64,000 nucleotides of DNA from a virus. This document shows, piece by piece, positions 1-61,301 of this stretch (within the stretch, counting starts at the first letter, position 1; every line of letters begins with the position of its first letter). The stretch covers positions 1 through 64,000 of the IMG/VR virus record IMGVR_UViG_3300006737_000020; one strand, written 5' to 3'. Both the position numbers and the translations under genes were made by a program. The notes under the pieces are model-generated. The model did not search any database and had not been told where the DNA came from. It saw nothing but the letters and a program-made list of their open reading frames with translations.

Positions 1-738
1 ATTTTGATTGGCAATACCTGTTATAACTGAATCATATCTTAATCCAACATATGCTTCATTCAACTCTAATGTATAATGTAATACTGTTTTGCCTTTCTTG
101 ACCGCATCTGCTCCGACATTCATTAATGCCCATGATTTACCAATTCCTGCAGGAGCAACCATTACACCAAGTTCACCTTTACCTAAACCACCATCTGTTA
201 GTTCATTTATAACTTCCCATGGAGTAGGTTGTACATCTCTAACTGCATCTGTATATCGTTCATCTATACTTGTCATATAATCATGTCCAATATCTTTATC
301 CGCTCCAGCTTTTAAAGCTTCATCAACTTTTGCTTTGATCCCATCATAGTCACCATTCTTTAATAATTCTACAGATCCTAAAATAGCTTTTTTAATTTCT
401 TGGTTTTTACAAAAATCCATTGCCTGATCTTTGATATATTCTAAATCAGGTGATTCTGTATATTTCCATGCATCCTTAAGATGTGCAACTACTTGTTCTT
501 TTAGTACATCATGGTCAACTTTTTCAAGTTTAACTTTCATCACTTCCAATGTAGGAGATGATTTATATTCTTTAAAGTATTCTAAAATTGTATCTATAAT
601 CCAGGCATTGGCATCAGATTCAAAATAACCTGAGACCATAATATCTGAAATTTGTTGTAGGAATGATTTATCTACTAGTAATGCTGTAATTACCTTTATC
701 TGAAATGCGTATCCGTACGAACTTAATCTATCTGTCAT
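1..738 (-). CDS. dnaB: Replicative DnaB/gp41-like helicase (runs off the left window edge)
   Basis: Not in the ORF track. Manual translation from ATG at 738 gives MTDRLSSYGYAFQIKVITALL...TPWEVINELTDGGLGKGELGVMVAPAGIGKSWAL...VLHYTLEL, with Walker A and SF4 helicase motifs; open to position 1. Confidence 0.93.
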   Translation of the reverse strand, partial: MTDRLSSYGYAFQIKVITALLVDKSFLQQISDIMVSGYFESDANAWIIDTILEYFKEYKSSPTLEVMKVKLEKVDHDVLKEQVVAHLKDAWKYTESPDLEYIKDQAMDFCKNQEIKKAILGSVELLKNGDYDGIKAKVDEALKAGADKDIGHDYMTSIDERYTDAVRDVQPTPWEVINELTDGGLGKGELGVMVAPAGIGKSWALMNVGADAVKKGKTVLHYTLELNEAYVGLRYDSVITGIANQN

Positions 739-741
739 ACT

Positions 742-773
742 TTAATATAATAATTTTTTTTCTAAAATCCTAA
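742..773 (-). promoter_or_regulatory. Class I (Bacteroidota-type -33/-7) promoter of the helicase gene
   Basis: Coding strand TTAG-N20-TATATTAA, ending 3 nt before the ATG. Confidence 0.7.
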
Positions 774-2996: not shown

Positions 2997-3779
2997 TTAT
3001 TCATTAAACAAATCATCAAATGCTGCTGAAACATCATCTACTTTGTTAACACCTTCTTTAACTGCATCTTCTTTCTTTGCTACTGGTTCTGCTGGTGTAG
3101 ATGCAGGATCTGTAGTTGCATCATCTCCATCTGGATTCAACCAATTTGCTAAAGCTTCTTTTAATTCATCATATGATGGCTCTTTAAAAATATCTTTAAG
3201 ATTAGGTTGATTCTTTGCACAAGCTTCTGCAACATTTTTGTCTTCAGTTAAAGCTGTAACATTAGGCTTTACTCTAATTGCTGTTTTAGGAAATTGTCCT
3301 GGACCTTCTGCTGGTGTAAATTCAACTAAGATATCTCTACCATTCATTGGATCTGTAATGTCACCATAATCTGGATCAGCTATTACTCCTAAAAGTTCTT
3401 GATAAACTAGTTTACCAAATCCCCAAAATTTAACACCTTCTGATTCTTTTCCTCTAACTAATACAGGAACATAAGTTCTCATTTTAGGTTCCATTTTCTT
3501 ACCTAATTTCCATTCGTCTGAATTACCAGAAGATTTTAATTTTTCAGAAAATTCAACAACTGGATCTGGTCTACCATGAGTTACTGGTGATAAAAAGTTT
3601 TTCTTACCTAAGTCATAGTGAAAGTACAATTCATTGAATGGATTGTCTTTGTTGTGCTGATAAGGTACGATTCTGATTATTTGTTTGCCTGGTTCAGGCT
3701 TCCATAAGTTTGACGTTCTATTATTCGTCGTTTGTAATTGATTAAGCTTTGCCTTAATCGCGTCTAAGTTAATTGCCAT
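2997..3779 (-). CDS. gp32: Single-stranded DNA-binding protein (T4 gp32-like)
   Basis: LWKPEPGKQIIRIVP, VKFWGFGK, DITDP..GRD, acidic C-tail (DDVSAAFDDLFNE); adjacent to UvsX. Confidence 0.85.
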   Translation of the reverse strand: MAINLDAIKAKLNQLQTTNNRTSNLWKPEPGKQIIRIVPYQHNKDNPFNELYFHYDLGKKNFLSPVTHGRPDPVVEFSEKLKSSGNSDEWKLGKKMEPKMRTYVPVLVRGKESEGVKFWGFGKLVYQELLGVIADPDYGDITDPMNGRDILVEFTPAEGPGQFPKTAIRVKPNVTALTEDKNVAEACAKNQPNLKDIFKEPSYDELKEALANWLNPDGDDATTDPASTPAEPVAKKEDAVKEGVNKVDDVSAAFDDLFNE

Positions 3780-3817
3780 TTTTTTATTCCTTTTTTTTAA
3801 TGGTTAATAATTAATAA

Positions 3818-3849
3818 TTAATATAACAACTTTATTTCAGTAATCCTAA
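3818..3849 (-). promoter_or_regulatory. Class I promoter upstream of SSB
   Basis: TTAG-N20-TATATTAA on the coding strand. Confidence 0.7.
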
Positions 3850-3940
3850 TGATTTATCAAAAAAGTTGTAAAAAAGTTTTTATTTTTTATTTTTTAATTT
3901 TGAGTTTAATTATGGCTAAACTCTAATCCTTTTTATTTAA

Positions 3941-3974
3941 TATAAATATAATGAAAATATTTCATATATCCTAA
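3941..3974 (-). promoter_or_regulatory. Composite class I/class II promoter upstream of SSB
   Basis: TTAG-N20-TATATTTA whose -7 box continues into the ATATTTATA motif (3941-3949). Confidence 0.6.
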
Positions 3975-5959: not shown

Positions 5960-7306
5960 TTAAACTACTTTCTCGGTCATATTTATCATGTCATGCATAG
6001 ATTTACCTGCTTTAATTTTAACTGGAAATTTATTATTTGTCATAGTATTCTTTAATTTAATAATTAGGTCTCTTCCGTCTTTAATATTAAAATCAAATAG
6101 CAATGAATCATATGTATATAAAATTAGTTTAGTATCATATGGTCCTAACAATGCATTTACTTCATTCATTACAGCCATATTATATTCAGTTTCCATACTT
6201 TGTAAATAATAATTAAATAATTTACTTGGGTTCATATCAGACATTGCAGTTTTAAATAACTTTCTTTTTAATATAGCTGTTTCCATATATCCTTTAGATT
6301 GGAATTCTTTCCACAATTTATAAGTAAAATCTTTTACTTTACCAAAGAATGTAATTTTTGCAAAATCTTTATCAACACCTCCATATAATAATCGGAATGA
6401 TATTTGTTTACTTTGTTCATATTCTTCTTCTGATAATTTATCTTTTCCAAAATATTGTTTACCTAAATATGTATGAACATTTTCTTTTCCAAAATCATAA
6501 TCTATAATATCTCCAATTAATCGTAAATGGTAAGAGTCATAGTCTAACTCTAATAACATACCATATTCATGTCTTGATATAAATGATTTTCTAGATCCAT
6601 CTATTTTATTTATGGCAGCATAATTTACACCACCATGTTTATTTGAAGGACGTCCTGTGGTTGTATAAATATTATATTCTGTATATGCCGTTTTTCCAAC
6701 TAAATTATTTGTTTGGAATTTTTCTACAAATTTATCATAATTAACTTTTAATCCATTTCTTTCAATTGCATATAAGTTATCTATAAATAATTCGTTATAA
6801 TAATCAAATCCATCTGTACGCTTAAATGTAGAATATGATTGTATAAATTTATTTTTCATTGCAGAACATCTTTCATAATGTTTAACTATAGGAACATAAT
6901 CATGCACATTGGTTTCATTATAGTACCATTTATTATACCAATCATGAGCATTTGTATCACAATCTTCTAATTGTAACATTTGATTTGATTGAAAATATTC
7001 AACTAAATCTGCATCATAGGTCTTATGATGGTAGAAATTTACAAAGCGTTTCTTCCCCAAAACATATATATCAGCCTTACTTGTAAGCCTGTTTAGATGT
7101 TCGGATTCTAGGCATATACAATCCTTATGACGGAATGGTACAATATATTCTTTTTTAGTATCCATAACATATATATAAACAAAACTTATTTCATTATTCA
7201 CATAATGTTTATATAAATCAGAAAATACTGGTATCCACAAACTATTAGATGTCTGTAATGCTTGATGTAGCTCTTGTAACCTTTTTTTGTCTTCTACAAT
7301 TTTCAT
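5960..7306 (-). CDS. Divergent family A DNA polymerase-like protein
   Basis: TTTGRPS, motif A LDYDSYHLR, motif B SKQISFRLLYG, NYYLQS, motif C YTYDSLLFD. Confidence 0.85.
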   Translation of the reverse strand: MKIVEDKKRLQELHQALQTSNSLWIPVFSDLYKHYVNNEISFVYIYVMDTKKEYIVPFRHKDCICLESEHLNRLTSKADIYVLGKKRFVNFYHHKTYDADLVEYFQSNQMLQLEDCDTNAHDWYNKWYYNETNVHDYVPIVKHYERCSAMKNKFIQSYSTFKRTDGFDYYNELFIDNLYAIERNGLKVNYDKFVEKFQTNNLVGKTAYTEYNIYTTTGRPSNKHGGVNYAAINKIDGSRKSFISRHEYGMLLELDYDSYHLRLIGDIIDYDFGKENVHTYLGKQYFGKDKLSEEEYEQSKQISFRLLYGGVDKDFAKITFFGKVKDFTYKLWKEFQSKGYMETAILKRKLFKTAMSDMNPSKLFNYYLQSMETEYNMAVMNEVNALLGPYDTKLILYTYDSLLFDFNIKDGRDLIIKLKNTMTNNKFPVKIKAGKSMHDMINMTEKVV

Positions 7307-7310
7307 TAAT

Positions 7311-7342
7311 TAATTATAATGAATTTTTTTCAAATAACCAAA
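7311..7342 (-). promoter_or_regulatory. Class I promoter of the PolA-like gene
   Basis: TTTG-N20-TATAATTA, ending 4 nt before the ATG. Confidence 0.6.
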
Positions 7343-19117: not shown

Positions 19118-19606
19118 TTAGAATTGAAGGATTGCATAATCATATTTAATTGTTAATTCAATATTAACAGCATCTTCAGTAGCCCAATCCATATCACCAA
19201 AAGTGGCAGCGGAAATAAATGCTCCTTTAATAGTCCATTCTTCAACTTTATCACCTACTGGACCTAATGTATTAAATACAATATCTTTCTTATAGAAATC
19301 AGAATATCCATCTCTTCCTGTTACTGATTCATGGTGTAATCTTACCCATTCCATAACAGCTTGCGCCCCTGATGGTACAACTGGGTCATATAACGTTACC
19401 GTAATATCTTGCCATCTAGATTTTCCTTTTAACTTTCTTTCAACATTAATATGATCTAACACTAGTTCTCCTTGATCAATTGATGGTCTAGAAGCCGCTT
19501 TCACTATGTAAGCTGGAATACCTTCGATGTACATTATAAACCTATTGGCTACTTTAGGCTCATATGCGGTATACATTATTTCATTTGGACTTAGTAAATC
19601 TGCCAT
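19118..19606 (-). CDS. gp19: Tail tube protein (gp19-like)
   Basis: EPKVANRF, WQDITVTLYDP, EEWTIKGAF...FGDMDW, IELTIKYDYA; follows the sheath gene. Confidence 0.92.
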   Translation of the reverse strand: MADLLSPNEIMYTAYEPKVANRFIMYIEGIPAYIVKAASRPSIDQGELVLDHINVERKLKGKSRWQDITVTLYDPVVPSGAQAVMEWVRLHHESVTGRDGYSDFYKKDIVFNTLGPVGDKVEEWTIKGAFISAATFGDMDWATEDAVNIELTIKYDYAILQF

Positions 19607-19661
19607 TTTATTATCTCCTCTTATTTAATATAAATATACTGTTATTATCTTTTTTCAACTA

Positions 19662-21446
19662 TTATTCAGGAAATGCTGCACCCGTTGGTAACACATTGAA
19701 ATCAATGATAATAAATTCTGCTGTTCTAGTTGGTTGCAAGAACAATTGACCTACCATTTGGTTTCTATCAATTACATCAGGAGTATTATTTGTTTCATCC
19801 ATTACTACTTTAAAAGCATATAAACCTTGTCTTTGTTGTACACTTTCTAAATATGGATTAACTATACTCAAGAATCTATTTCTTGTTTCTGCTGTATTTT
19901 GTTCAAATACTAAGAACCTTGTCGCAGAAGCAATAAACTTCTTAGCTGCAATTAATAATCTTCTAACGTTTACTCTATCCAATGCAGATGCTTTCTTCTG
20001 TAATGTCTTTTGTCCAAATGCAACAACACCACTATTAGGGAAAGTTGCTAATGGATTAACATTTGAATCATATAAGCTATCTCTATTACCATGAGTTAAT
20101 TTTCTTTCTGGTTGGATTGCTCTATCAATTCCTCCTCTATTTAAACCTGCAGGTGCAAACCATTCTGCTGATACTTTATCATTAAATGCATATACACCAC
20201 CCATTGCTACAGATGCTGGAACCCAAACATTTTTAGATGCATAATTATCCGCCATTTGAATCCAAGGCCAATATACTGCAGCATAATTGGTATCTCTACC
20301 AGATGCTTCTGTAGTTGCATCAGTTATTGTTCCTGCATATGCTATAGGATCTACAATTGCAAAACAATCACCTCTATCTTCACACATTTGAATTGCTGAA
20401 GTTGCAATAGTTGAATGACCTGCTAATGCTGCAATTACACCTGGCATTAATAATAAGTTAATATCATATTCGTCTTGGTTACCTAATAAGTTAATTGCAT
20501 CTTCATATGCTGTTTTACCCTTTGCTCCTGTTCCTAACGCATATCCTTGCGAATTAGTTGCAGTAATGTTTTCATAGAACATTTGTGGATGTTCTACATT
20601 TCCATCACTACCACCTGAGAATGTTCCTGAAACTTCTAATGGTAAAGAACCAGTATAGTCTGCATTTGAAATATTTCCATTTTCATCTAAATAATTTAAT
20701 GTTTGACGAGTTACTTCTACTCTAACATATTTAGATTTGTTCATATAAGAACCTGATGCTTGGATATATGGACTAACTGTTCCAGATCCTCTTAAATTAA
20801 GTTTTGCATCTCCAATTCTTTTTGCAATATAATTTGTTGAATTTGGATCTAATGATAAGTTATTCCATGTCTCAAGAATATTTTTTCTTTTGATTGTATC
20901 ATTACCACTTCTTAAATATAATGAGAAAGTACCTTTTGAAGTATTCTTATTTGCAACTTCCCATCTTAAATTATCTTTTGATCCAGATAATAATATATTA
21001 TTTGAACCTTCATCATCTGTAGAACCAGAACCTGCTGTTGACGCATGTGGTTGACCACTATTCAATATAGCTCCGTCTGATAAGTTATGTAATTTGAATG
21101 ATGTTGCTGCGTTAGGCATTGATGATGCTACTGTTGAATCACCACCGGAAAAATCTCCCGCCATTATTCTAACTACTGTTAATGAGTCATGATGTCTCAA
21201 ATATTCTTCTGCAGCTAATGATGTTAGATATGAATAATATCCAAGATTTGCTCCAGAACCACTTTCAAACACATCGCCAAATAATTGTCTATATTCAGCC
21301 ATAGATGTTACCATGGTAGGAACCAATGCTGGACCTTTTACAGTAGGACCTACTATTGCCGCTCCTATGTTTTGTATCCCTGCTGGAAGAAATGATAAAT
21401 CTCTTTCTCGGGTAAATACACCTGGTGATACTATTTTTTCAGCCAT
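19662..21446 (-). CDS. gp18: Contractile tail sheath protein (gp18-like)
   Basis: SPGVFTRERD N-terminus, WFAPAGLNRG, FGQKTL, DRVNVRRLL, FEQN, PTRTAEFI. Confidence 0.96.
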   Translation of the reverse strand: MAEKIVSPGVFTRERDLSFLPAGIQNIGAAIVGPTVKGPALVPTMVTSMAEYRQLFGDVFESGSGANLGYYSYLTSLAAEEYLRHHDSLTVVRIMAGDFSGGDSTVASSMPNAATSFKLHNLSDGAILNSGQPHASTAGSGSTDDEGSNNILLSGSKDNLRWEVANKNTSKGTFSLYLRSGNDTIKRKNILETWNNLSLDPNSTNYIAKRIGDAKLNLRGSGTVSPYIQASGSYMNKSKYVRVEVTRQTLNYLDENGNISNADYTGSLPLEVSGTFSGGSDGNVEHPQMFYENITATNSQGYALGTGAKGKTAYEDAINLLGNQDEYDINLLLMPGVIAALAGHSTIATSAIQMCEDRGDCFAIVDPIAYAGTITDATTEASGRDTNYAAVYWPWIQMADNYASKNVWVPASVAMGGVYAFNDKVSAEWFAPAGLNRGGIDRAIQPERKLTHGNRDSLYDSNVNPLATFPNSGVVAFGQKTLQKKASALDRVNVRRLLIAAKKFIASATRFLVFEQNTAETRNRFLSIVNPYLESVQQRQGLYAFKVVMDETNNTPDVIDRNQMVGQLFLQPTRTAEFIIIDFNVLPTGAAFPE

Positions 21447-21523
21447 TTAAATTCTCCTCTTTGTTAAACTAAGACATGAGTCTTATTATTTTTAAATAAA
21501 TATACTTAAATGGCTTCAAACCA

Positions 21524-31373: not shown

Positions 31374-33056
31374 TTATATAGTATCCAATCCATCTACATG
31401 AATCTTACCATAGAATTCTGGTCTTACCATTTTCTTAGCATATCTAGTCATTACACCTTTTCTTGGAGTGAATGAAGCTGGATCATATACTAATGGAGTC
31501 ATGATAAGTGGAATGTATGGAGCATAAACTGCACCAGTTTCAAGGAATTGAGCTCCTCTATATCCCATAAGAATTGTATTCTCAGTCATGTATGGGTTTT
31601 TATAAACTTGGAATCTACTATTAATAGAACCAACTTTTTGTACACCCATTGCAAACTGCATTTTATCACCATCTGTATCAGCAGCATATCCAGGAATAGA
31701 TTCTAGGATAGTTGCAACAGTTGGAGAACATACTAGGAAGTTTGCACCACCTCTTAATGTTAACTGGTGAATTTTGTTACTTACTTTCTGGATTTTAGTT
31801 CCTAAAGTTTGGAACCAAGTACCTTGGTTGTAAGCTGCAGAATTTCCAGCTGTATTAGAGAATGTTGTCAACGTTGAATCATATTCAAAGCCTAATCTTG
31901 CTGACCAGAAGTCAGTAGTTTGAGCATTTTGCATTAACATATCTAATAATTCTAAATCAATTTCTTGCGAAACGTATTCAGATAACATAGAAGTTAATTC
32001 AGCCTCAGCATCAATTGAATGATAAGCATTCAAGTCTTGAGCAAATTCTGGAGTCCAGATTGCTTTTAACTTTCTTGTCTTAGCAACAATCGCCTCAGAT
32101 CTCATCTCTAGGTTGATTTCTGGAATAGCTAAAGCAGAATTAGATGCACCTGAATCTTGTGATTGATCTTCAAAGTCACCTCTTGAAGTATCACCAGGTT
32201 GCTTCTGGTAAGTAATTGTACCGTTCTCAACAGCTGCAGTTGCTACAGATGATTTAACTAAGAATGATACTTTTGGTGTAGCACTTGCTAGACCAGTATT
32301 TCCTGATACAGTAGTAAATTGAGGATAATAAGTCTCAATTCCTGAACCTGAAATTTGGAATGCTCTAACACCATTTGCATCAGCTAAATCAGAAGCTGCA
32401 AATGTAAAGTCTACAGTTGTTAATTGACCGATTCCAACAGATGCAGCAGCTAATGAAGCAGAAAATTCTGAATCATGATTAGTTCTTTGCTCAAAAGTTG
32501 TTTGAGTAAATGCTGAACCTGTTACAATGTTAGTACCAACAACACCAGTTGCAGTTACTTTGTTTCCTAATGATGTTTCGTTAACTGAATAACCAAATCT
32601 ACCTGCGCCATAAAGACCTTCAGTAGCTACGGTTGATCCTAACGTATCATCAGTTACACCGAATACAGAATCGTTTTGTGAATCTTTACCAGAGTTTGTA
32701 GTAAATCCTGGTTGGTTGGTCCCATACTTGAAATCAAGGAAGAATACTAGACCAGAAGGTAAGTTCATTGGTTGTACACTTACAAAATCTTTAGCAGCAA
32801 TCTCAGCAAAAATTCTTCTTACCAATGGTAATGCTACACCTGACCACTCTTCTGAGTTTGCAGATGTACCTGTAGAATTTGCTTCTGATACTAATTGTTT
32901 TGCTTGGTTTTCCAATAGAACTGCCATTCCTGACTTTTCATATTCTTTACCTAAACCTTCAAGAAGACCAGTTCTTTCCCATTTTCTAACCAAACCTGCT
33001 GTAGCAGCTTTTGATTTAGCAACGGAATCATTTGGCATTAATGAATTTATATCCAT
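31374..33056 (-). CDS. gp23: Major capsid protein (gp23-like)
   Basis: LLENQ, VSVQPMNLPSGLVF, AKTRKLKAIWTPEFAQDLNAYH, YAPYIPL, FTPRKGVMTRYA. Confidence 0.97.
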   Translation of the reverse strand: MDINSLMPNDSVAKSKAATAGLVRKWERTGLLEGLGKEYEKSGMAVLLENQAKQLVSEANSTGTSANSEEWSGVALPLVRRIFAEIAAKDFVSVQPMNLPSGLVFFLDFKYGTNQPGFTTNSGKDSQNDSVFGVTDDTLGSTVATEGLYGAGRFGYSVNETSLGNKVTATGVVGTNIVTGSAFTQTTFEQRTNHDSEFSASLAAASVGIGQLTTVDFTFAASDLADANGVRAFQISGSGIETYYPQFTTVSGNTGLASATPKVSFLVKSSVATAAVENGTITYQKQPGDTSRGDFEDQSQDSGASNSALAIPEINLEMRSEAIVAKTRKLKAIWTPEFAQDLNAYHSIDAEAELTSMLSEYVSQEIDLELLDMLMQNAQTTDFWSARLGFEYDSTLTTFSNTAGNSAAYNQGTWFQTLGTKIQKVSNKIHQLTLRGGANFLVCSPTVATILESIPGYAADTDGDKMQFAMGVQKVGSINSRFQVYKNPYMTENTILMGYRGAQFLETGAVYAPYIPLIMTPLVYDPASFTPRKGVMTRYAKKMVRPEFYGKIHVDGLDTI

Positions 33057-33076
33057 TTTTTAATCTCCTTTTAATA

Positions 33077-34126
33077 TTAAAGTAATCCAGCTAACTTCTT
33101 AAATCTATTAGCAACATCATTTCCTTCTGAAAGGACTTTCTTTGATGGTCTTGTAGATCTCGAAGGCTTACTAGCATACGATTCTTTAATGGTTTTTACT
33201 TTTCTTTTACCACCCAATTTGAATGACTCAGTCAATGTAGCAAATACTAACTTAACTTCTCTCAATGTTTGAGCTCTGTCAAAGTTTTCAATTACTTTCA
33301 TTTTCTGACCTTCATTCAATGAATGATTTCTAAATAATTTGTTCGAGAATAATAGTTTAGCATTTAGCAAGTTAACTTCATTCAACTTAGACTTCATAAA
33401 TCTGATTACTTTGTAAGCTTCTTCAAGGTCTTTTGCTGCATCACCATCATCAACACCTGCTGTGTCGTTTTCTTCTACTGGTTCTGCTTCATCGCCTTCT
33501 TCTTCTCTCAAAGCATTAATGATTTCGTCAAGGTCAACTTCTTCTTCTTCAGTAACTTCTTCTTTGTCGTCACCTTCGTTTTCTTTAAGTTTTCCTTTGC
33601 CTGGGTCTTCTTCATCTGAGGATGATGCTTGTTTCATACTAGTTCCTTTACCAATACCAGTTGAACCAGACTGTTCTTCAACAGTTTCTTCTTCATCTTC
33701 ACCTTCTGTTACAGCTTCTTCATCTTCACCTTCAAGCTCTCGTAAGATTGCTTCTAGTTCTAAATCTTCTGCTTCAGAATGCATATCGGTTGGATCTTCG
33801 TCATCTTCGCGCATACCTTCATCAGTTTCTTCCCCTCTCATTCCTTCTTCTGCCATTTCGTCGTCAGCCATTTCTTCTTCCATTTCTGGAGCTGGTGCCT
33901 CAACTGGTGCTTCCATTTCTGGTTCAGCAGCAACTGGTTCATCCATTGGCATTTCGTCTTCCATAGCCATTTCATCTTCCATACCTTCTTCTTCAGAAAG
34001 TTTAGCAGACAACATGCTTTGAAGTCTTGGAGTAAAAGCTTCTTCTAATGCTATTTTAGCGTTTGCTAATGCTGTTTCTCGTACCGCTTTCGCGTCAGCA
34101 ATAGCTTCTTTCAATAAATTGTTCAT
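33077..34126 (-). CDS. Prohead core scaffold protein (gp22-like)
   Basis: Extremely Glu-rich, immediately upstream of the capsid gene; LNEVNLLNAKLL, RFKKLAGL C-terminus, many (I/L)xE sites. Confidence 0.8.
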   Translation of the reverse strand: MNNLLKEAIADAKAVRETALANAKIALEEAFTPRLQSMLSAKLSEEEGMEDEMAMEDEMPMDEPVAAEPEMEAPVEAPAPEMEEEMADDEMAEEGMRGEETDEGMREDDEDPTDMHSEAEDLELEAILRELEGEDEEAVTEGEDEEETVEEQSGSTGIGKGTSMKQASSSDEEDPGKGKLKENEGDDKEEVTEEEEVDLDEIINALREEEGDEAEPVEENDTAGVDDGDAAKDLEEAYKVIRFMKSKLNEVNLLNAKLLFSNKLFRNHSLNEGQKMKVIENFDRAQTLREVKLVFATLTESFKLGGKRKVKTIKESYASKPSRSTRPSKKVLSEGNDVANRFKKLAGLL

Positions 34127-34159
34127 TTATCTCTCTCCTTTAATAAATTTGTTCGGAAA

Positions 34160-34253
34160 TAAGACTATTAAGAGTCTCAATGTGAATTGTTATAAAAATA
34201 TTCAGGGACGGTGATATTGAAGCACCGTATATACTTGTTACAATTATAAATAT
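34160..34253 (-). promoter_or_regulatory. Class II motif plus structured 5' leader of the scaffold-capsid operon
   Basis: ATATTTATA at 34245-34253; hairpins at 34208-34228 (ACGGTG/CACCGT) and 34160-34179. Confidence 0.55.
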
Positions 34254-34329
34254 ATACAGTTATTGAAAAACCTACTTTTTTTCAAGAAAATTTTTAGCTT
34301 AAATAAAAATAATAAAGTATAGATAAAAT

Positions 34330-34590
34330 TTACCTATCTTCTTTGGAATTAATTTGTTGAAAATATTTTGCATTATCCATTTGTTCACGCCTTCTATCGG
34401 ATTTTTTTCTAAAATATCTTCTATCTCTTAACTCTTGCAATGTTCCTGCATCTTTAAGAGCTCTTTTCCAAAATCGAATTGCAAATCCAATATCTCCTTG
34501 ATCTTTAGGATTTTTTGGATTTTTTACTACGGCTGCGCCCAGAGCATGTCCTGGTAAATGCGATTGCCAAATTTTATGTTTCTTATTCAT
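34330..34590 (-). CDS. rpsU: Phage-encoded ribosomal protein bS21
   Basis: DIGFAIRFWKRALKDAGTLQELRDRRYFRKKSDRRR matches the bS21 core; C-terminal AKYFQ resembles the Bacteroidota A-x-Y-x-Q segment. Confidence 0.88.
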   Translation of the reverse strand: MNKKHKIWQSHLPGHALGAAVVKNPKNPKDQGDIGFAIRFWKRALKDAGTLQELRDRRYFRKKSDRRREQMDNAKYFQQINSKEDR

Positions 34591-34617
34591 GTAATTTATT
34601 TTACGTTATAACTATTA

Positions 34618-34649
34618 TTAATATAAAGAATATATTTCAATTTACCAAA
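34618..34649 (-). promoter_or_regulatory. Class I promoter of bS21
   Basis: TTTG-N20-TATATTAA on the coding strand. Confidence 0.72.
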
Positions 34650-35855: not shown

Positions 35856-36461
35856 TTAGTACTCCTTAATTATATCAGTTATTAATTTATTTACATTTGC
35901 ATATTTATCAAATTGTTTTTTTGATTTTCCTTCATTTACTGGAGATAAAAATGCTCCATGAGTTGATGGATTTGAAACAAAGTCAAATGCAATTAGTTCA
36001 AAATCAGGCTGAACTTCTAATGTATCATCACCTTCTCTCATTACTTCTTTTACAGATCCCATACCTCTTGATGATATACCTAATCTAATACCTGATTTGA
36101 ATAGTTCTTTTAAAATGTTACCTGCAGGAGTACCTAATACTTCTACAGTTCCAACTAAATCATCACCTTGCCAATTCATACCTAAAACGTTATGACTTAC
36201 ATTATTTAAATTAACTACAGATGAATCTGGATGATCTAATTCTCCAAGAGCTCTCTTTTCTTTAATAAATCCTTCAGCATATTTATTTGCTTCTCTCATT
36301 AAAGTTTCTTTTGGATATATTCTTCCATTTTGATTCTTTGATTCAGCTCTTTGCAGAACTCCAGAAACAATTAATTTTCCGCCATTTTTAGATAGACTTT
36401 CATTAATTTGTTGAGGAGTTATCTCAAATGTTTGATAATTAACTAATAATTGCTTTGCCAT
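35856..36461 (-). CDS. gp21: Prohead protease (gp21-like)
   Basis: NQNGRIYP, ALGELDHP, VSH, GISSRGMGS, DFVSNPST. Confidence 0.95.
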   Translation of the reverse strand: MAKQLLVNYQTFEITPQQINESLSKNGGKLIVSGVLQRAESKNQNGRIYPKETLMREANKYAEGFIKEKRALGELDHPDSSVVNLNNVSHNVLGMNWQGDDLVGTVEVLGTPAGNILKELFKSGIRLGISSRGMGSVKEVMREGDDTLEVQPDFELIAFDFVSNPSTHGAFLSPVNEGKSKKQFDKYANVNKLITDIIKEY

Positions 36462-40127: not shown

Positions 40128-40158
40128 AATTTTCTACTTTTATATAAATATGATTGTA

Positions 40159-41742
40159 CTATAAAAGCCAGGTTAAATCGTCGTTGTCTTTATCTCCACT
40201 CTTCCAATCCCATCCTGAACCTTTTAAGTCTGTTTTTGTTGAATATACTCCTTCTGATGTCTTTCCTATACCGCCTAATGATTTTCTATTTAAATCCATA
40301 CCTTGTTGATGAAGTCTTAATGCTGTATCTCTCATCCATAATCCTGTTGCAAATGACATTACTAAATCATCATTATAGCCCCTTGCAGCTTCTGCTCTAT
40401 GCCCTAACCAAATAAATGTAAATAATTCATCTACTAATCTTTTTGAATGAACCAATGGTGTTTTATCTCTAAAATATGTTTCTAATTTAGATATTACTAA
40501 TGGACGAGTTCTTGATGTCATTGAAAATCCAGGAACTTTTTGTGATTTCTTTTTTAAATCATATCCTTTCTTCAAGTGTATTTCCTCATCTAAGTATCCA
40601 TCTTGTTTATAAGAATAGTATAGATTTTGGTATCCTTTGTCTAATGCTACCTGAATGGATGCCCATCCTATATTTGCATTTTCAATAACTAGTAATGCAT
40701 TATTATATTCTGTTGCAACTGATATTAACATATTACCATATTCGGTAGTTCCTATTTTACCTCTATATTCTGCAACTTGTTTACATTGTTCTGTATCAAA
40801 TACATGGAATGCAGAGTAATCAGTTGAATCTCCTCTTGCAACGTCAGCTACAACCATATATGATTTTGAATAATTTGGATATTCCCATATCCAATAATTT
40901 CCATCCATTCCTCGCTTTTCAATTGGATCTTTAACATATGTTTCCTGATACCATTGTAGTATTTCTCCATCTACTACTGTATGTCCAGATGATATAAAAT
41001 CACAGTCACATTCTTGAGCGGCCATTTTCTCACCTAACAATTCTGTTTGTTTATCTCGCCAAGCTTGATCTCTATCTGGATGTACTGTCCAATGTAATGA
41101 TATATTATTAAATTCTCCGCCTGCAGTTGCTTCTACCCATTGTTTATGAAACCAATTACCAACTCCATTAGGTGTAGATAATGCAATACAATCTCCACCA
41201 GTTGCTAATGTTTGTTGAGCGGCTGTCCATATATCATCAATTTTATCAATAAATGCTGCTTCATCAAATATCAATAATGATAATGCTTCAGATCTACCTG
41301 CATCACCTTTTGATGATATGGCCTTTATTTGCGACCCATTACTTAATCTTAATGAAAGTTTATTATCTTCAGCAACTGCCCCCTTTAACCATTTAGGTAA
41401 GTTTTCATGCATTACTCTAACCTTTGTTACAAGGTTCTTTGCAACATCTTGTTTAGTTGCAATTACTAGACAGTTAAAATCTGCCTTAAATAACATTTTC
41501 CATAATGCATATCCGGCTGTTAAAGTTGAAATTCCTAACTGTCTAGACTTAAGAATAATATTATATCTATTTTGAGATATCTGTGTTAATGATTCTTCTT
41601 GGAATGGATACAGATTAAAATATATTTTTCCTTGAGTAGGATGTTGAATTATACAGTATTTACGCATAAAGTGTATAGGATCTTGTACACACTTCTTATA
41701 TTCATCGCGTATGATTTCTTTTAATGTTTTCTTTACTGACAT
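40159..41742 (-). CDS. terL: Terminase large subunit (gp17-like)
   Basis: LYPFQ, KSRQLGIST, LIFDEAAF, STPNG, ADVARG..DYS, DDLVMS. Confidence 0.96.
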   Translation of the reverse strand: MSVKKTLKEIIRDEYKKCVQDPIHFMRKYCIIQHPTQGKIYFNLYPFQEESLTQISQNRYNIILKSRQLGISTLTAGYALWKMLFKADFNCLVIATKQDVAKNLVTKVRVMHENLPKWLKGAVAEDNKLSLRLSNGSQIKAISSKGDAGRSEALSLLIFDEAAFIDKIDDIWTAAQQTLATGGDCIALSTPNGVGNWFHKQWVEATAGGEFNNISLHWTVHPDRDQAWRDKQTELLGEKMAAQECDCDFISSGHTVVDGEILQWYQETYVKDPIEKRGMDGNYWIWEYPNYSKSYMVVADVARGDSTDYSAFHVFDTEQCKQVAEYRGKIGTTEYGNMLISVATEYNNALLVIENANIGWASIQVALDKGYQNLYYSYKQDGYLDEEIHLKKGYDLKKKSQKVPGFSMTSRTRPLVISKLETYFRDKTPLVHSKRLVDELFTFIWLGHRAEAARGYNDDLVMSFATGLWMRDTALRLHQQGMDLNRKSLGGIGKTSEGVYSTKTDLKGSGWDWKSGDKDNDDLTWLL

Positions 41743-41748
41743 AGTATT

Positions 41749-41780
41749 TTAATATAATAAATTATCTACAGAAAAACAAG
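41749..41780 (-). promoter_or_regulatory. Class I promoter of terL
   Basis: CTTG-N20-TATATTAA, ending 6 nt before the ATG. Confidence 0.65.
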
Positions 41781-41791
41781 AAAAAGAATGA

Positions 41792-42190
41792 TTATTTTTT
41801 CTTTGTCTTTTCAAGTGATCTACCACCAAAATAAGCACCAATTACTGTAATAAGTACTAATTGTAAAAGGTCCGTCCATTTATCTTCTACTACAAATTTA
41901 ATTGTTCCTGCATCAATAAAAATTAATAATACTGTACATACTACTAAAAATATTAATACTAATGGTCTTACATTTTTACTTAACCAAGAATCTGAATTCA
42001 TATCAGCTGACCATCTGTCTGTGATATTCTTTTCCATTGCCGCCTCATGGTTGGCAATTAATTCTTTCATTTTTCTTTTTGCTTCTAATTTTTCTTCTTT
42101 CGAGGTTGTTAGATTATCAAGTACACCACCAACTGATTCTACTAGTTCTCCGGCTCCACCTGAAAATAATTTTCCTAATCCAAATCCCAT
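41792..42190 (-). CDS. Holin (3TM / GTA-holin type)
   Basis: RW.ADM.SDSWLSKNVRPL, hydrophobic helices, AYFGGRS.EK end. Confidence 0.8.
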   Translation of the reverse strand: MGFGLGKLFSGGAGELVESVGGVLDNLTTSKEEKLEAKRKMKELIANHEAAMEKNITDRWSADMNSDSWLSKNVRPLVLIFLVVCTVLLIFIDAGTIKFVVEDKWTDLLQLVLITVIGAYFGGRSLEKTKKK

Positions 42191-56092: not shown

Positions 56093-59000
56093 TTAATTAT
56101 AGGAAATATTTGAGTAGCCGTTTGTCTTTTTAATTTCAATTAATTTATCTACTATGTCTCGCATTGCATCTATATGAGAAATACACATAATAAATCCAAA
56201 CTGTGATTTTAAATAATCAAATAACATATACATTGAATTAAGATTGTCTGAATCTAATACTCCAAAACCTTCATCAATTGCAAGAAAATTTGGCCTAGGA
56301 AGATTTGATACATTTATTAGAGAAGTTCTAATAGCTAATGATGAAATAAATTTCTCCATACCAGATGTTAATTCTAATGGCCAGTAATTATCATCATCAT
56401 ATACAATAAATGCATTTATATTTTTGCCATCTGTATGTAATATAATTGTAAATTCAACAATTTGATTTAAGATATTATTTATTTCAGCTTCTATTTGTGG
56501 AAGTGCTCTAGTTATTAAATGATAAGGAACTCCATTACGCTGAACTGCTTTTTGATAATATTCATATCCTTGATATTGTTGTTCTAATGATTTTAATCTA
56601 TTAATACCATCAATTGCATCTTGTCTAGACTTTTCAGCCATTTTTAATTTACCTGAAAGAGATAATAGTTTAGTATGTAATTGTCCTAATTCTGAACTTA
56701 CTGTTGTTATTTCTTCTCTAATTTCAGATATTTCAGAATTTTTAGTTTTATTAAATTCAATATTATCTTTTTGTTTTTGAGATTTTGTTAATTGTTTTTT
56801 CTTATCACGTATATCATTATTTATAGATTCAATATCCCATTTACACTTTTCTAATTCATGTTTATATGCAATTAATGTTCCATTATTTATTCCTAATGAA
56901 TGTTTTAAATCAGCTAAAACTTTTAATTTTTCTTTTGGTTTATCTTCATGTTCTATTTTTGCAATACCATCTTCATGATGTTTAATATCAAATTCTAAAA
57001 CTTGTTCTTCATCAATTAATTTAGGCAATAAGTCTGCAACTTGTTGAGTTTCTTTTAACCATGGATTAGCCATACAATAACTACAATCTTCATCCCATTC
57101 ATGTTTGTCTAATTTTGAAACCATTTTTTGAGCATGTTGTATTTTTAATTGTTTTAATTTAAGATCGTTATTTAATTTAATAACAGTATCATTATAATCT
57201 TTTAATTCTACTAATGCATCTTTTAAAGATTGTTCATCAATCTTATTTATTTTTTGGGTTATTTCTTTTATTAATTTTTGTTGAGACTTAATTAAATCTT
57301 TTTGATGTTCTCGGTCTAATTTTAAATTTCCAATTCTATCAGATAATTGAGTAATTTCATATTTAATATCATCTGGTGAATCTAATGTATCATCAACTTT
57401 TTTTAATTCTTTTGTTAACGAAAAAATGATATCATTGAGATTTGTTTTCATTTCTTCATGTTCTGTCTTGTCAACTTTCATTTGTTCATATGATCCGGTA
57501 TATTGAGATATAATTTCCCTAGCAGTTGATAAATCAGTTGAAAAATCTTTTCTTTTGTATTCTCTTATTAATGCAGCTGTTTCTCTAATATCTTCATGGC
57601 CTACCAAATATTGTTGTTCAAAAATATCAATATCTAAAAACTGTGATAATAAATCTTTTCGTTCTCTTTGAGTTTTATCAATAAAGCCTGTATTATTATT
57701 TTGTAATGATAATGCTGTTAATACAAAGTCTTCATATGATCCAAGATATTGTCTTATACTTTTATTTGTAGAATCTCTTTGGTCTCCATTTAATGATTCT
57801 TCATTTCCGTCTTTATCAACTCTCCAAAAATTTACATCTACTTTTACATGACCACGATTATTCTTTTTTCCTGTCCTTTCAATAAAGTATATATATTTTC
57901 CTAATTCAAATTCAAACTTACAATGGAATCTAGATTTTTTATTATTTAATACATGAGCAGCTTTTTTTGTACGACTACATCTATCAAAACAAGTAAATGC
58001 TAATGCATCTAATAATGTTGATTTACCAGATGCATTTGGTGCAAATAATCCATATGTTCCATTCATATTTGAAAAATCAATTTCATTATCTTCACCATAA
58101 CTAAACATGTTTGAAAATTCAAATTTCTTAGGTTGCCAAGTAATATTTCTTGTTAATGTATTAGTTGGTAATTTTGAATGAACGGTTCTATTTATATGTC
58201 TAACTGTATCTAGCAATTCATCATCAAGCGCAAATTCATCTGTTAGATATTCTGTAATAACATTGTTTTGCCATTCTACATCTCGCACATTTCCAAAATT
58301 AATTTTATTTTTTGAATCTGTTGTATTTAATGCATTTATTTTTTGAATTGAAATATCTTGGACTTTATATTTAGATCGAATATCTGCAATTATTTGTTTT
58401 AAGGTTCCAGAATCTGTATCTTTTACTTTTAATCTCAATCTTGGTTTTTTAGGTACTCTTGAGTCTGGATTGATAATTTTGCCATTATCAATTTCGTATG
58501 TATAATAACCATAATCATTTTCAATTTCAACAAATTCAGATTTTTTAGTTTTTAAATCCCAAATCATTATTCCATGACCTAAAGATTCTCCATGATTTTG
58601 TTGAATTAAAGAACCAGCATATGCAATTGTTTTCTTATCATCTAAATATTGTGGTTTATGGATATCACCTAATAATACCAAATCATGTCCTATAAACATA
58701 TCTGTTGTAACATGAGTATTACTTAATGTAAATCCAGCATCTGTTGATGCGTTATGTACCGAACCATGATGTAATGCTATCTTAAAATTACCTTCAAAAT
58801 CAGATGCTTTTATATATTTTGCAGGCTTTTCATCCACCGCCATTACGTTAAAGTGTACACCTTGGATATCATATACATCGTTGTCTTTAAGATAGTGTAA
58901 GTTCTTATGATTGATGGCTTTAACAATAGGACTTAAGGCATCCAGTCTATAATTGTTATTTAGGTTACAATCATGATTTCCTAAAATTACTATGGTAGGT

Positions 59001-59224
59001 AATAAATCTGCTAAATTAGAAAAGAATTCAGATGTTAAATCAATTAACTCTGGTGACATATCTGTTTTTGCGTGTACAATATCTCCAGCAATATAAATAA
59101 TATCATTTTCTTGTTTTGTCTTTTTTATATAAGAATATAATCGTTTAAATACTTGTCTATATTCTTTATGACGTTTAACATTTCTTATATGTACATCTGC
59201 TATGTGATATATTCTATTTATCAT
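56093..59224 (-). CDS. Fused Mre11/SbcD nuclease and Rad50/SbcC ATPase (gp47-gp46-like)
   Basis: HIADVH, IAGD, GNHD, LGDIH; APNASGKS, CSYC hook, SGMEK, LAIDEGF. Start at 59224 inferred from the ATGA overlap with the primase stop. Confidence 0.93.
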   Translation of the reverse strand: MINRIYHIADVHIRNVKRHKEYRQVFKRLYSYIKKTKQENDIIYIAGDIVHAKTDMSPELIDLTSEFFSNLADLLPTIVILGNHDCNLNNNYRLDALSPIVKAINHKNLHYLKDNDVYDIQGVHFNVMAVDEKPAKYIKASDFEGNFKIALHHGSVHNASTDAGFTLSNTHVTTDMFIGHDLVLLGDIHKPQYLDDKKTIAYAGSLIQQNHGESLGHGIMIWDLKTKKSEFVEIENDYGYYTYEIDNGKIINPDSRVPKKPRLRLKVKDTDSGTLKQIIADIRSKYKVQDISIQKINALNTTDSKNKINFGNVRDVEWQNNVITEYLTDEFALDDELLDTVRHINRTVHSKLPTNTLTRNITWQPKKFEFSNMFSYGEDNEIDFSNMNGTYGLFAPNASGKSTLLDALAFTCFDRCSRTKKAAHVLNNKKSRFHCKFEFELGKYIYFIERTGKKNNRGHVKVDVNFWRVDKDGNEESLNGDQRDSTNKSIRQYLGSYEDFVLTALSLQNNNTGFIDKTQRERKDLLSQFLDIDIFEQQYLVGHEDIRETAALIREYKRKDFSTDLSTAREIISQYTGSYEQMKVDKTEHEEMKTNLNDIIFSLTKELKKVDDTLDSPDDIKYEITQLSDRIGNLKLDREHQKDLIKSQQKLIKEITQKINKIDEQSLKDALVELKDYNDTVIKLNNDLKLKQLKIQHAQKMVSKLDKHEWDEDCSYCMANPWLKETQQVADLLPKLIDEEQVLEFDIKHHEDGIAKIEHEDKPKEKLKVLADLKHSLGINNGTLIAYKHELEKCKWDIESINNDIRDKKKQLTKSQKQKDNIEFNKTKNSEISEIREEITTVSSELGQLHTKLLSLSGKLKMAEKSRQDAIDGINRLKSLEQQYQGYEYYQKAVQRNGVPYHLITRALPQIEAEINNILNQIVEFTIILHTDGKNINAFIVYDDDNYWPLELTSGMEKFISSLAIRTSLINVSNLPRPNFLAIDEGFGVLDSDNLNSMYMLFDYLKSQFGFIMCISHIDAMRDIVDKLIEIKKTNGYSNISYN

Positions 59225-60144
59225 ATTCCCATTATCCTTTGCTCTATTAGCCAACTAGAAGTAAGTTTTTCTGTTCCAGCTAATATGTTATTAATTTTTC
59301 CAAAACCTACTTCACTTGGATCTTTTTCTTTTAAGTCTACAAAATATACATCTACTCCATTTGCCATAAAATATTCAGCCGTTTCAATAGCTTGTTTTCT
59401 TGCATCCTGGTCAAGACATATATAAATTATTTTTACATTATTTTCTATAATACGATGTTTAAGTTGATCTGGTATTGTTTTACCAAATAATGGAATTGCA
59501 TTCCTTCTTATTGCAATTGCATCAAAAGCTCCTTCAACTAAACATACTGGATAATTCCAGTTAATATGTAACTCAAATCCTACAATATCTTTTGATACCT
59601 GTGGATTTTTATGTTTAAAATTATCATCTTCATAGTAAGCTCTTCCAACAAAGTAATTTAATACTCCATTTGCATCATAACTAGGAATAATAACCTTTCC
59701 TGAATATTGTCCAGTTTCGCAATATCCTATTCTATATTTAAGAATATCATGAATAGTAATACCTCGTTTTTTAAGATAATAAACCGCATTTCTATATTCT
59801 GGTGATAATGTGTTTATTTTCCATAATGGCTTGAACTCGGGTGGTAATTCTACTGCCTTTGTATTTGTAGTAGTTATTTTAGGTCTATATTCTGTTTCTT
59901 CAATATATTCAAATAATTTAGATATTTTAAATCGTTCAACTTTTAACTTTTTAAATAATGTAATTATTTTACGGCCTGCCGCATTACATACCCAGCAATG
60001 CCAGTGTTGAGAAAGGATGTTAACTTCTAACTTCTTTTTGTTATGATGGCAAAAAGGACAGTGAAAAGCTACATTGCCTTTATTAGTAGATCTACCCTTT
60101 CCAAGTACAGATTCTATTAATGTTAGTAATTTAAAATTCGTCAT
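59221..60144 (-). CDS. dnaG: DNA primase (DnaG/gp61-like)
   Basis: CPFC...HCWVC zinc finger; TOPRIM LVEGAFD, CLDQDA, KDP. Confidence 0.9.
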   Translation of the reverse strand: MTNFKLLTLIESVLGKGRSTNKGNVAFHCPFCHHNKKKLEVNILSQHWHCWVCNAAGRKIITLFKKLKVERFKISKLFEYIEETEYRPKITTTNTKAVELPPEFKPLWKINTLSPEYRNAVYYLKKRGITIHDILKYRIGYCETGQYSGKVIIPSYDANGVLNYFVGRAYYEDDNFKHKNPQVSKDIVGFELHINWNYPVCLVEGAFDAIAIRRNAIPLFGKTIPDQLKHRIIENNVKIIYICLDQDARKQAIETAEYFMANGVDVYFVDLKEKDPSEVGFGKINNILAGTEKLTSSWLIEQRIMGI

Positions 60145-60149
60145 GTATA

Positions 60150-60181
60150 CTAATATAAAGAAAACTTTTCAAATAACCAAA
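60150..60181 (-). promoter_or_regulatory. Class I promoter of the primase gene
   Basis: TTTG-N20-TATATTAG, ending 5 nt before the ATG. Confidence 0.72.
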
Positions 60182-61262: not shown

Positions 61263-61301
61263 TCTCGTGACTCCTTTTATTAACCTATTTAATATAAATA
61301 T

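Follow-up and report, generated by a model that had tools for sequence, protein, structure and literature searches.

The stretch of DNA analysed here (the window, 64,000 nucleotides) is the first 64 kb of a 103,223-bp IMG/VR viral contig (IMGVR_UViG_3300006737_000020; CheckV completeness 58%, GC 32%), and within its head module lies a gene for the ribosomal protein bS21. We find that this phage uses two kinds of translation start that follow its promoters, in that genes behind an early-type (class I) promoter, including bS21 itself, lack a strong Shine-Dalgarno (SD) site, whereas most genes behind a late motif are led by an SD site. Across the capsid family to which the phage belongs, SD use is suggestively linked to the presence of a bS21, and every SD-rich relative carries a form with an N-terminal extension. 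We propose, with a little less than even confidence, a two-phase translation programme in which the extended phage bS21 would re-tune Bacteroidia ribosomes for SD-led late mRNAs. The source is a marine T4-like myophage with a genome of about 180 kb, in the group of Flavobacterium phage vB_FspM_immuto (MW353175; immuto below) and 'Microcystis' phage Mel-JY01 (PP395634), its nearest cultured relatives. Gene calls are longest open reading frames (ORFs), and the minus strand holds all real genes of the window.

Judged by its sequence, the ORF at 34330-34590 is a real bS21. It matches PF01165 (Ribosomal_S21) at E 5.5e-9 over residues 29-76, with 36 bits against a cut-off of 27, and PDB bS21 chains from five species match it at E < 1e-3. 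The gene lies on the strand of the head genes, between the prohead protease block and the scaffold-like and major capsid protein (MCP) genes, as follows.
35856-36461, minus strand: prohead protease, flanking bS21
34620..34649, minus strand: class I promoter of bS21, TTTGGTA-N17-TATATT, read from sequence
34591..34619, minus strand: SD-less, A/T-rich bS21 leader of 29 nt, duplex energy +0.5 kcal/mol
34330..34590, minus strand: phage bS21 gene, 86 aa (PF01165 and phrog_21469)
34246..34253, minus strand: late-type motif ATATTTAT, downstream of bS21 and before the scaffold-like gene and MCP
33077-34126, minus strand: scaffold-like gene, 349 aa, between bS21 and MCP
31374-33056, minus strand: MCP gene, downstream of bS21

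The bS21 promoter, TTTG-N20-TATATTAA or equivalently TTGGTA-N17-TATATT, is kept in 16 related loci as ATTTGG/ATTAGG...TTCTTTATATTA, almost base for base, and the SD-less leader is kept in the same number; since promoter and leader are conserved together, the gene has its own promoter. A search of the leader for GGAG, GAGG, AGGA and AAGG found none of them, and the autoregulatory extended SD of Flavobacteriales rpsU is absent ahead of the phage gene. The initial annotation had placed bS21 inside the head module with its own class I promoter and no SD, and all three points are borne out. Immediately before the bS21 ATG, most type A relatives (the window phage's type; L007-L016) have the direct repeat TAGTTATAAnCATAAAATAGTTAT, of which the window leader (34591-34619) holds the variant TAGTTATAACGTAAAATAAATTAC; the repeat could be a regulatory site. 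The 203-nt spacer that follows bS21 (34127-34329) contains, before the SD of the scaffold-like gene, the late motif and a 6-bp hairpin (ACGGTG...CACCGT), and no terminator in this spacer passed a consensus scan.

Promoter-proximal genes were assigned to promoter classes by eye. The class I box, ATTwGGwT-N17-TATATT, stands before 12 genes (helicase, the SSB gp32, divPolA1, primase, UvdE, terL, bS21 and five others), among which GGAG occurs in none and a weak AGGA in one. The initial annotation had reported this promoter, with a TTTG element, at the helicase, single-stranded DNA-binding protein (SSB), PolA-like, primase and terL genes and had found no GGAG at class I genes; the promoter is present at all five and the absence of GGAG stands, but the TTTG element does not hold throughout, with TTAG in its place at the helicase and gp32. 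At the helicase-like gene the box TTAG-N20-TATATTAA ends 3 nt before the ATG, with the TATATT core 5 nt before it. The named class I genes other than bS21 are located as follows.
1..773, minus strand: helicase-like gene, SD-less, continuing beyond the window edge
2997..3974, minus strand: gp32-like SSB with two class I boxes, TTAG-N20-TATATTAA/TATATTTA, and a weak AGGA only
5960..7342, minus strand: thumb-less PolA (divPolA1; 448-aa ORF 5960-7306), SD-less, with about 6 nt between class I promoter and ATG
40159..41780, minus strand: terL, SD-less, with about 6 nt between class I promoter and ATG
59221..60181, minus strand: primase, SD-less, with about 7 nt between class I promoter and ATG

The late motif, (c)ATATTTAT(a/t), precedes 25 genes and occurs in 32 copies on the coding strand against 13.7 expected. 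Eighteen of these 25 genes have an SD (8 strong of the GGAG type and 10 weak), compared with 1/12 class I genes (p 3.6e-4). The difference persists when only leaders of at least 17 nt are considered, with an SD in 1/5 class I and 18/19 late genes (p 0.002). Among the seven SD-less late genes, six, including portal, have leaders of at most 16 nt, and the seventh (17847) has a 28-nt leader. The same counts can be read as a leader-length rule, in which late motifs ending at most 16 nt before the ATG go without an SD (6/6) and those ending at least 17 nt before it go with one (18/19). In the longer form (c)ATATTTAT(a/t)TAAA the motif is seen at about 25 sites, for example 34246-34253, 40128-40158 and 61263-61301. 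The proposed tie between initiation class and promoter class thus stands. Two further bS21 clades, represented by Mel-JY01 and the complete type C genome G327, show the same division, with class I replication genes nearly leaderless and virion genes led by an SD; immuto does not.

Placement of the SD sites is sharp. In 19 genes GGAG begins at precisely -11, and in 28 of 103 it lies within -13..-10, against a background of 0.0046 per position (binomial p about 6e-25). Strong SD sites precede 27/103 genes and weak ones a further 28, and the duplex energy with CACCUCCUUU is -4.4 kcal/mol or lower for 48% of genes compared with 20% of random 20-mers. All 17 GGAG sites listed initially are present. 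Their assignment to mostly virion and late genes is also upheld, yet the SD-led set also includes genes from outside the virion modules (PhoH, hsp20 and small ORFs), and about half of the checked examples of these are behind late motifs. Sites on major virion genes include the following.
34135..34138, minus strand: GGAG SD of the scaffold-like gene, -8.8 kcal/mol
33065..33068, minus strand: GGAG SD of the MCP gene, -8.9 kcal/mol
19118..21460, minus strand: tail sheath and tube genes, each with a late motif and GAGGAG at about -12, -9.0 kcal/mol each

The phage bS21 aligns without gaps to residues 7-59 of Flavobacterium johnsoniae bS21 (7jil_z), and departs from the short Bacteroidia-type protein of about 62-67 aa in having 86 aa, a 22-aa extension and an 8-aa insert. 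Its features, by codon, are these.
34525..34590, minus strand: N-terminal extension MNKKHKIWQSHLPGHALGAAVV, codons 1-22, absent from bacterial bS21
34498..34521, minus strand: NPKNPKDQ loop insert, codons 24-31
34399..34407, minus strand: KKS in place of the usual KPS, codons 62-64, invariant in type A
34360..34365, minus strand: Tyr-Phe (Y76-F77), codons 76-77, equivalents of F. johnsoniae Tyr54-Ile55

The initial annotation had singled out the extension, the insert and KKS as distinguishing features, and only the extension retains that standing. It is nearly invariant among 24 family members (type A alignment), and its composition (MNKKHKIWQSHLPGH: 4 Lys, 3 His, 1 Trp) is that of the extended rpS21 proteins of Al-Shayeb 2020, while Bacteroidia bS21 start at the canonical strand in 29/29 sampled. 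The insert ranges from 0 to about 17 aa among close homologues and is therefore unlikely to be a key feature, and KKS or KDS is also found in some Bacteroidia bS21 (L144, L161). At the C-terminus, NAKYFQQ of the phage aligns with KAAYIQ of F. johnsoniae, whose Tyr54 makes a stacking contact with A1534 and whose Ile55 lies packed on the 3' tail of 16S rRNA (Jha et al. 2021, PMC7797042). Y76-F77 thus sit, as in the Bacteroidia-type signature, in a non-basic tail (NAKYFQQINSKEDR), and an aromatic residue occupies the Tyr54 position in all type A homologues. Retention of this tyrosine, which had been entered as a caveat (AKYFQ), argues against a simple loss of anti-SD sequestration, and the idea of a sequestration-defective bS21 finds no backing in a protein that keeps the Tyr54/Ile55 equivalents and the non-basic tail and whose KKS is not specific to phages. 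We propose from the sequence that the N-terminal extension is a better candidate for the active feature than loss of Tyr54, and that it might compete with the 16S tail for the platform groove or stabilise the SD helix.

To place these features in the wider family, whose capsid protein is found in at least 578 IMG/VR contigs, a survey was assembled from 80 IMG/VR loci, further bS21 loci, two cultured phages and 19 contigs from metagenome-assembled genomes (MAGs), of which 72 loci were usable; bS21 was detected with a broad hidden Markov model and SD sites were counted per locus. A bS21 gene lies upstream of MCP in 53/72 loci, in which 291/1062 genes have a strong SD, compared with 15/354 in the 19 loci without bS21 (Mann-Whitney p 4e-9 for SD use of bS21-bearing against bS21-less loci). 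Wherever the SD fraction is at least 0.2, bS21 is present, and in all SD-rich relatives its extension is at least about 10 aa. Extension length itself does not correlate significantly with SD fraction (Spearman 0.21), the automated lengths being partly wrong. At MCP, an SD or SD-like G-run is found in most bS21-bearing relatives and is absent in all bS21-less, SD-free clades; MCP leaders are G-free in bS21-less clades including immuto, for example aaaaaacacaaaaaaccaca, and PF01165 is absent from the whole immuto genome. The sister phages L087 and L088, the only SD-free phages with bS21, provide a natural contrast to the extended forms, as they encode short Bacteroidia-like proteins with extensions of 0 or 4 aa and have an SD at 1/26 and 0/22 genes.

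The bS21 proteins of the family fall into types by their C-termini. Type A/A', that of the window phage, keeps Tyr; type B (Mel-JY01-like; L003 and relatives) has a basic tail; type C is mixed; and type D (L082, L086, L099) is alphaproteobacteria-like (VEVYNNNVDGALR), with L099 binned in a Rhodobacterales MAG. Types B and D occupy the same place in the head module. Leaders of the bS21 gene are SD-less in types A/A' and C; those of type D carry the SD AGAGG, and those of type B have no more than a weak AAGGA. Likeness to proteins of different phyla at one locus suggests, as far as sequences can tell, repeated replacement or strong host-directed adaptation.

The host is probably a member of the Bacteroidia, of Flavobacteriales type, judging from the bS21 and tRNA sequences. 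Phage bS21 matched proteins in 84/121 sampled Bacteroidia genomes (best score 31.8 bits at 42% identity, with alignments that extend to residues 80-86), in 45/101 genomes of the Bacillota-type phylum (best 22.9 bits, alignments stopping at residue 75) and in 11/101 Pseudomonadota genomes (best 20.2 bits); the result would stand without G099, an unpublished genome in the Bacteroidia set. In unbiased samples of about 30 per group, median bS21 scores were 36 bits for Bacteroidia, 31 for Pseudomonadota and 30 for the Bacillota-type group, and Tyr54 is present in 28/29 sampled Bacteroidia bS21 and in 0/59 from the other two groups. The only phage tRNA, a tRNA-Arg(TCT) outside the window (G000 97864-97938, minus strand; L005:13864-13938), matches tRNAs of 3/61 Bacteroidia genomes at 89-92% identity across all 75 nt (109, 104 and 100 bits), and its best matches elsewhere are partial (86 bits in 61 Pseudomonadota and 80 bits in 61 Bacillota-type genomes). 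Likeness of rpS21 has been used before to infer host phylum (Al-Shayeb et al. 2020, PMC7162821), as it was for HTVC008M (PMC6375957).

By its SD use the phage stands apart from such a host. Strong SD sites were counted at 2/121 genes in six Bacteroidia genome stretches, in which 11% reach -4.4 kcal/mol or lower, and at 16/42 and 6/51 genes in Bacillota-type and Pseudomonadota control stretches; the Flavobacterium phages immuto (whole genome) and 11b have 4/215 and 0/57. SD use in the window phage equals the level of Firmicutes and far exceeds that of the Bacteroidia controls and Flavobacterium phages, and it is therefore unlike a typical Bacteroidia phage. The strict Bacteroidota promoter TTTG-N18-21-TAnnTTTG shows no enrichment in either the phage or immuto, which makes promoters no guide to the host, and the -35-like box of class I fits the sigma-70 layout as well as the Bacteroidota -33/-7 layout. 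UvdE, considered as a host marker, proved uninformative, being rare in both Bacteroidia and Pseudomonadota. Pfam searches of the six largest proteins gave no host-specific domains, and a sequencing-run search returned marine metagenomes only, with no single-cell or culture run and no host clue. In one MAG labelled Flavobacterium sp. (G001), contigs C196, C197 and C207 (L120/L131, L123/L113 and L124) each carry a type C phage bS21, and the MAG's own rpsU has an extended SD (gagaggaggtg); binning of short contigs is weak host evidence.

In the programme that we propose, replication proteins, terL and bS21 would be encoded by mRNAs from early or middle (class I) promoters, leaderless or A/T-rich and without an SD, which unmodified, SD-blind host ribosomes could translate. 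Phage bS21, with its basic and aromatic 22-residue extension, would then enter the 30S subunit at the bS21 site and alter the hold on the 16S 3' tail, so that the anti-SD would be free to pair, and SD-led late mRNAs (capsid, scaffold, protease, sheath, tube and fibres) would gain a channel closed to SD-less host mRNAs. The host, the timing, the entry of bS21 into ribosomes and its consequence for the anti-SD are our inferences. The steps are plausible because each has a published precedent: F. johnsoniae ribosomes free of bS21 read SD sites (McNutt et al. 2023, PMC9976891), a phage bS21, in the sole precedent for such assembly, enters Escherichia coli ribosomes (Mizuno et al. 2019, PMC6375957), and N-terminal extensions of phage rpS21 have been predicted to favour phage mRNAs (PMC7162821). 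A broader form of this proposal is possible, although we lean somewhat against it, namely that extended bS21 un-blinds the ribosomes of hosts that rarely use SD sites (Bacteroidia, perhaps cyanobacteria and streamlined Alphaproteobacteria) and opens a private late channel. The extension and late SD sites would then have co-evolved across a widespread aquatic T4-like family, with early genes (including bS21 in types A/A' and C) kept SD-less for native ribosomes.

Several observations weigh against the two-phase programme. Three phages (L032, L087 and L088) have bS21 and little SD. On the MCP tree, bS21 and SD states are distributed clade-wise with only about 5-8 contrasts, for which a sign test is not significant; with so few independent contrasts, the association between bS21 and SD use is suggestive and not statistically secure. 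Mel-JY01, recorded as a Microcystis phage and having bS21 and some SD, together with the alphaproteobacteria-like type D, implies that the link is not specific to Bacteroidia. With Y76/F77 and the non-basic tail kept, the published structure predicts host-like sequestration of the anti-SD. Labels of the 19 capsid-family contigs in MAGs are too mixed to assign hosts, and a profile scan of bacterial genome contigs with the type A bS21 alignment found nothing. The SD-less early genes may, moreover, simply reflect an ancestral leaderless layout common to immuto.

The first competing explanation, which we regard as rather unlikely, is that the host, a non-Bacteroidia or an unusual lineage, itself reads SD sites, so that those of the phage match host practice and bS21 is a host mimic that keeps ribosomes replete or aids SD pairing, with no switch. 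Phages usually match the initiation signals of their hosts, and both cultured Flavobacterium phages checked are nearly SD-free. The family's other bS21 types are Alphaproteobacteria-like or similar to Bacillota-type proteins, and the phages that carry them are SD-rich too; L099 falls in the bin of a Rhodobacterales MAG, and Microcystis is the recorded host of Mel-JY01. The class I promoter is compatible with sigma-70 spacing, and S21 in E. coli is needed for pairing between mRNA and 16S rRNA (as cited in PMC6375957). However, Bacteroidia are indicated by the tRNA-Arg as well as by the core and Tyr54 signature of bS21, and an SD-reading host offers no evident reason why GGAG should be missing from 12/12 early-promoter genes, including those with leaders of 29-40 nt, or why SD-rich members always carry bS21.

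Alternatively, the host could be one of the Bacteroidia and the phage bS21 a host-like protein that hides the anti-SD, serving to escape host control, to complete ribosomes after shut-off or, by means of its extension, to give phage leaders an advantage; the SD sites would then be served otherwise, for example by a bS21-free ribosome pool or by contacts between extension and mRNA. The retained Tyr54/Ile55 equivalents and non-basic tail are what such a protein would have, and Chen et al. (PMC9723584) argue the same for their phages. Several host rpsU genes have extended SDs (L119, L155, L177, L156) and the phage gene has none, and being SD-less it would therefore bypass host rpsU autoregulation (PMC9976891). 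We consider this explanation unlikely, as it accounts neither for the sharply placed -11 GGAG on the most needed virion genes nor for the strict co-occurrence of SD with extended bS21, and a small bS21-free pool would seem too little for bulk late synthesis. Lastly, T4 RegB cuts at GGAG, and the near-constant GGAG in place of GAGG (28 against 5) might mark an RNA-level signal, a site of cleavage or of binding by a phage factor and not a partner of the anti-SD, but this is highly improbable given the SD-like fixed spacing at -11, whether intergenic or within the upstream gene, the flanking AAGGAGA complementary to CCUCCUU as in an SD, and the lack of a RegB-like gene among the proteins scanned, a scan outside which many proteins lie.

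Much of the background to the two-phase programme is already known, including phage bS21 itself (Mizuno 2019), its N-terminal extensions (Al-Shayeb 2020) and its location among head genes with Tyr54 retained (Chen 2022), and the idea that bS21 occupancy decides SD reading comes from PMC7797042 and PMC9976891. In the freshwater Bacteroidetes myophages of Chen et al. 2022 (PMC9723584), bS21 likewise lies in a terL/portal/protease/MCP block and has an aromatic residue at Tyr54, and for those phages as for ours its substitution into host ribosomes in favour of late mRNAs has been proposed. Their bS21 is on the strand opposite to the head genes, in genomes of up to 331 kb whose SD use was not analysed, whereas in the window phage bS21 is on the same strand, follows an early-type promoter of its own and has a 22-aa extension, and SD sites lead about half of the phage's genes; it thus lacks the opposite-strand arrangement that marks the clades of Chen et al. 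The rpS21 of huge phages (PMC7162821; Watson et al. 2020, PMC7550191) has an N-terminal extension rich in Lys, His and Trp, as here, for which a role in capturing ribosomes or in preferential initiation has been predicted. A comparison of ribosome binding sites by Watson et al. showed no clear relation, their supplementary phage sheet giving the site of the S21 gene only, and the huge-phage studies do not report a genome-wide link between extended bS21 and SD.

Similar comparisons can be made with the host protein and with cultured phages. Bacteroidia bS21 (PMC7797042, PMC9976891) has the core fold motifs, the Tyr54/Ile55 equivalents and the non-basic C-tail in common with the phage protein, but is 62-67 aa long without an extension and in many Flavobacteriales is encoded by an rpsU with an extended SD, whereas the phage form has extension and insert and an SD-less mRNA. 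Pelagibacter phage HTVC008M (PMC6375957) is also T4-like and marine, and its bS21, which resembles that of its host, has been shown to be taken up by E. coli ribosomes, although that protein is alphaproteobacterial, of 67 aa and 54% identical to its host's, and the phage is of another lineage. Immuto and Mel-JY01 share divPolA1 and the late motif with the window phage and differ from it in that immuto has no bS21 anywhere and 2% SD, and Mel-JY01 has a bS21 with KPS and a basic, Tyr-less tail and 10% strong SD. A literature search found no paper linking phage bS21 to genome-wide SD use, and it is this link, between extended phage bS21 and SD-led genes, that is new here.

The gene for bS21 is the most common ribosomal protein gene in viruses, and no function has been shown for it. 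The pattern described here, in which late SD sites occur only in relatives with extended bS21, early genes are SD-less, the bS21 gene is itself SD-less in types A/A' and C and the protein of this phage is of Bacteroidia type, gives the vague notion of ribosome hijacking the form of a specific hypothesis that can be addressed in the F. johnsoniae system. Should the hypothesis prove true, a virus would be re-coding the selection of start sites in nature through the swap of one ribosomal protein; this would explain why Bacteroidia retain an anti-SD that they do not use and that phages can exploit, and would offer an orthogonal translation switch for the engineering of Bacteroidota.

The remaining gene content agrees with the placement of the phage. 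Its terL is 57% identical to that of immuto and also 57% to that of Mel-JY01, compared with only about 30% to cyanophage and T4 types, and its MCP is 63% identical to those of immuto/Mel-JY01; with these two proteins it shares with the group an identical head gene order and divPolA1, a family A polymerase described for 14 immuto-like phages (bioRxiv 10.1101/2024.04.26.591309). Cultured phages gave no match by megablast with the head region or by tblastn with bS21. Virion-side genes identified include portal, head protease, MCP, sheath, tube, hub and adaptor, along with PhoH and a holin-like gene; those for replication are primase, thumb-less PolA, gp32, a RecA/UvsX-like protein too divergent to serve as a search query, 5'-3' exonuclease, helicase and a fused Mre11/Rad50-like protein. 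This last is a 1053-aa ORF (56093-59254, minus strand) in which a calcineurin-like phosphoesterase (Mre11/gp47-like) is fused with an SMC/AAA_23 ATPase (Rad50/gp46-like), and its true start is uncertain because the called TTG start overlaps primase by 34 nt. The holin-like gene (41792-42190, minus strand; phrog_3427, E 7e-31) lies directly upstream of terL and has the strong SD AAAGGAGA.

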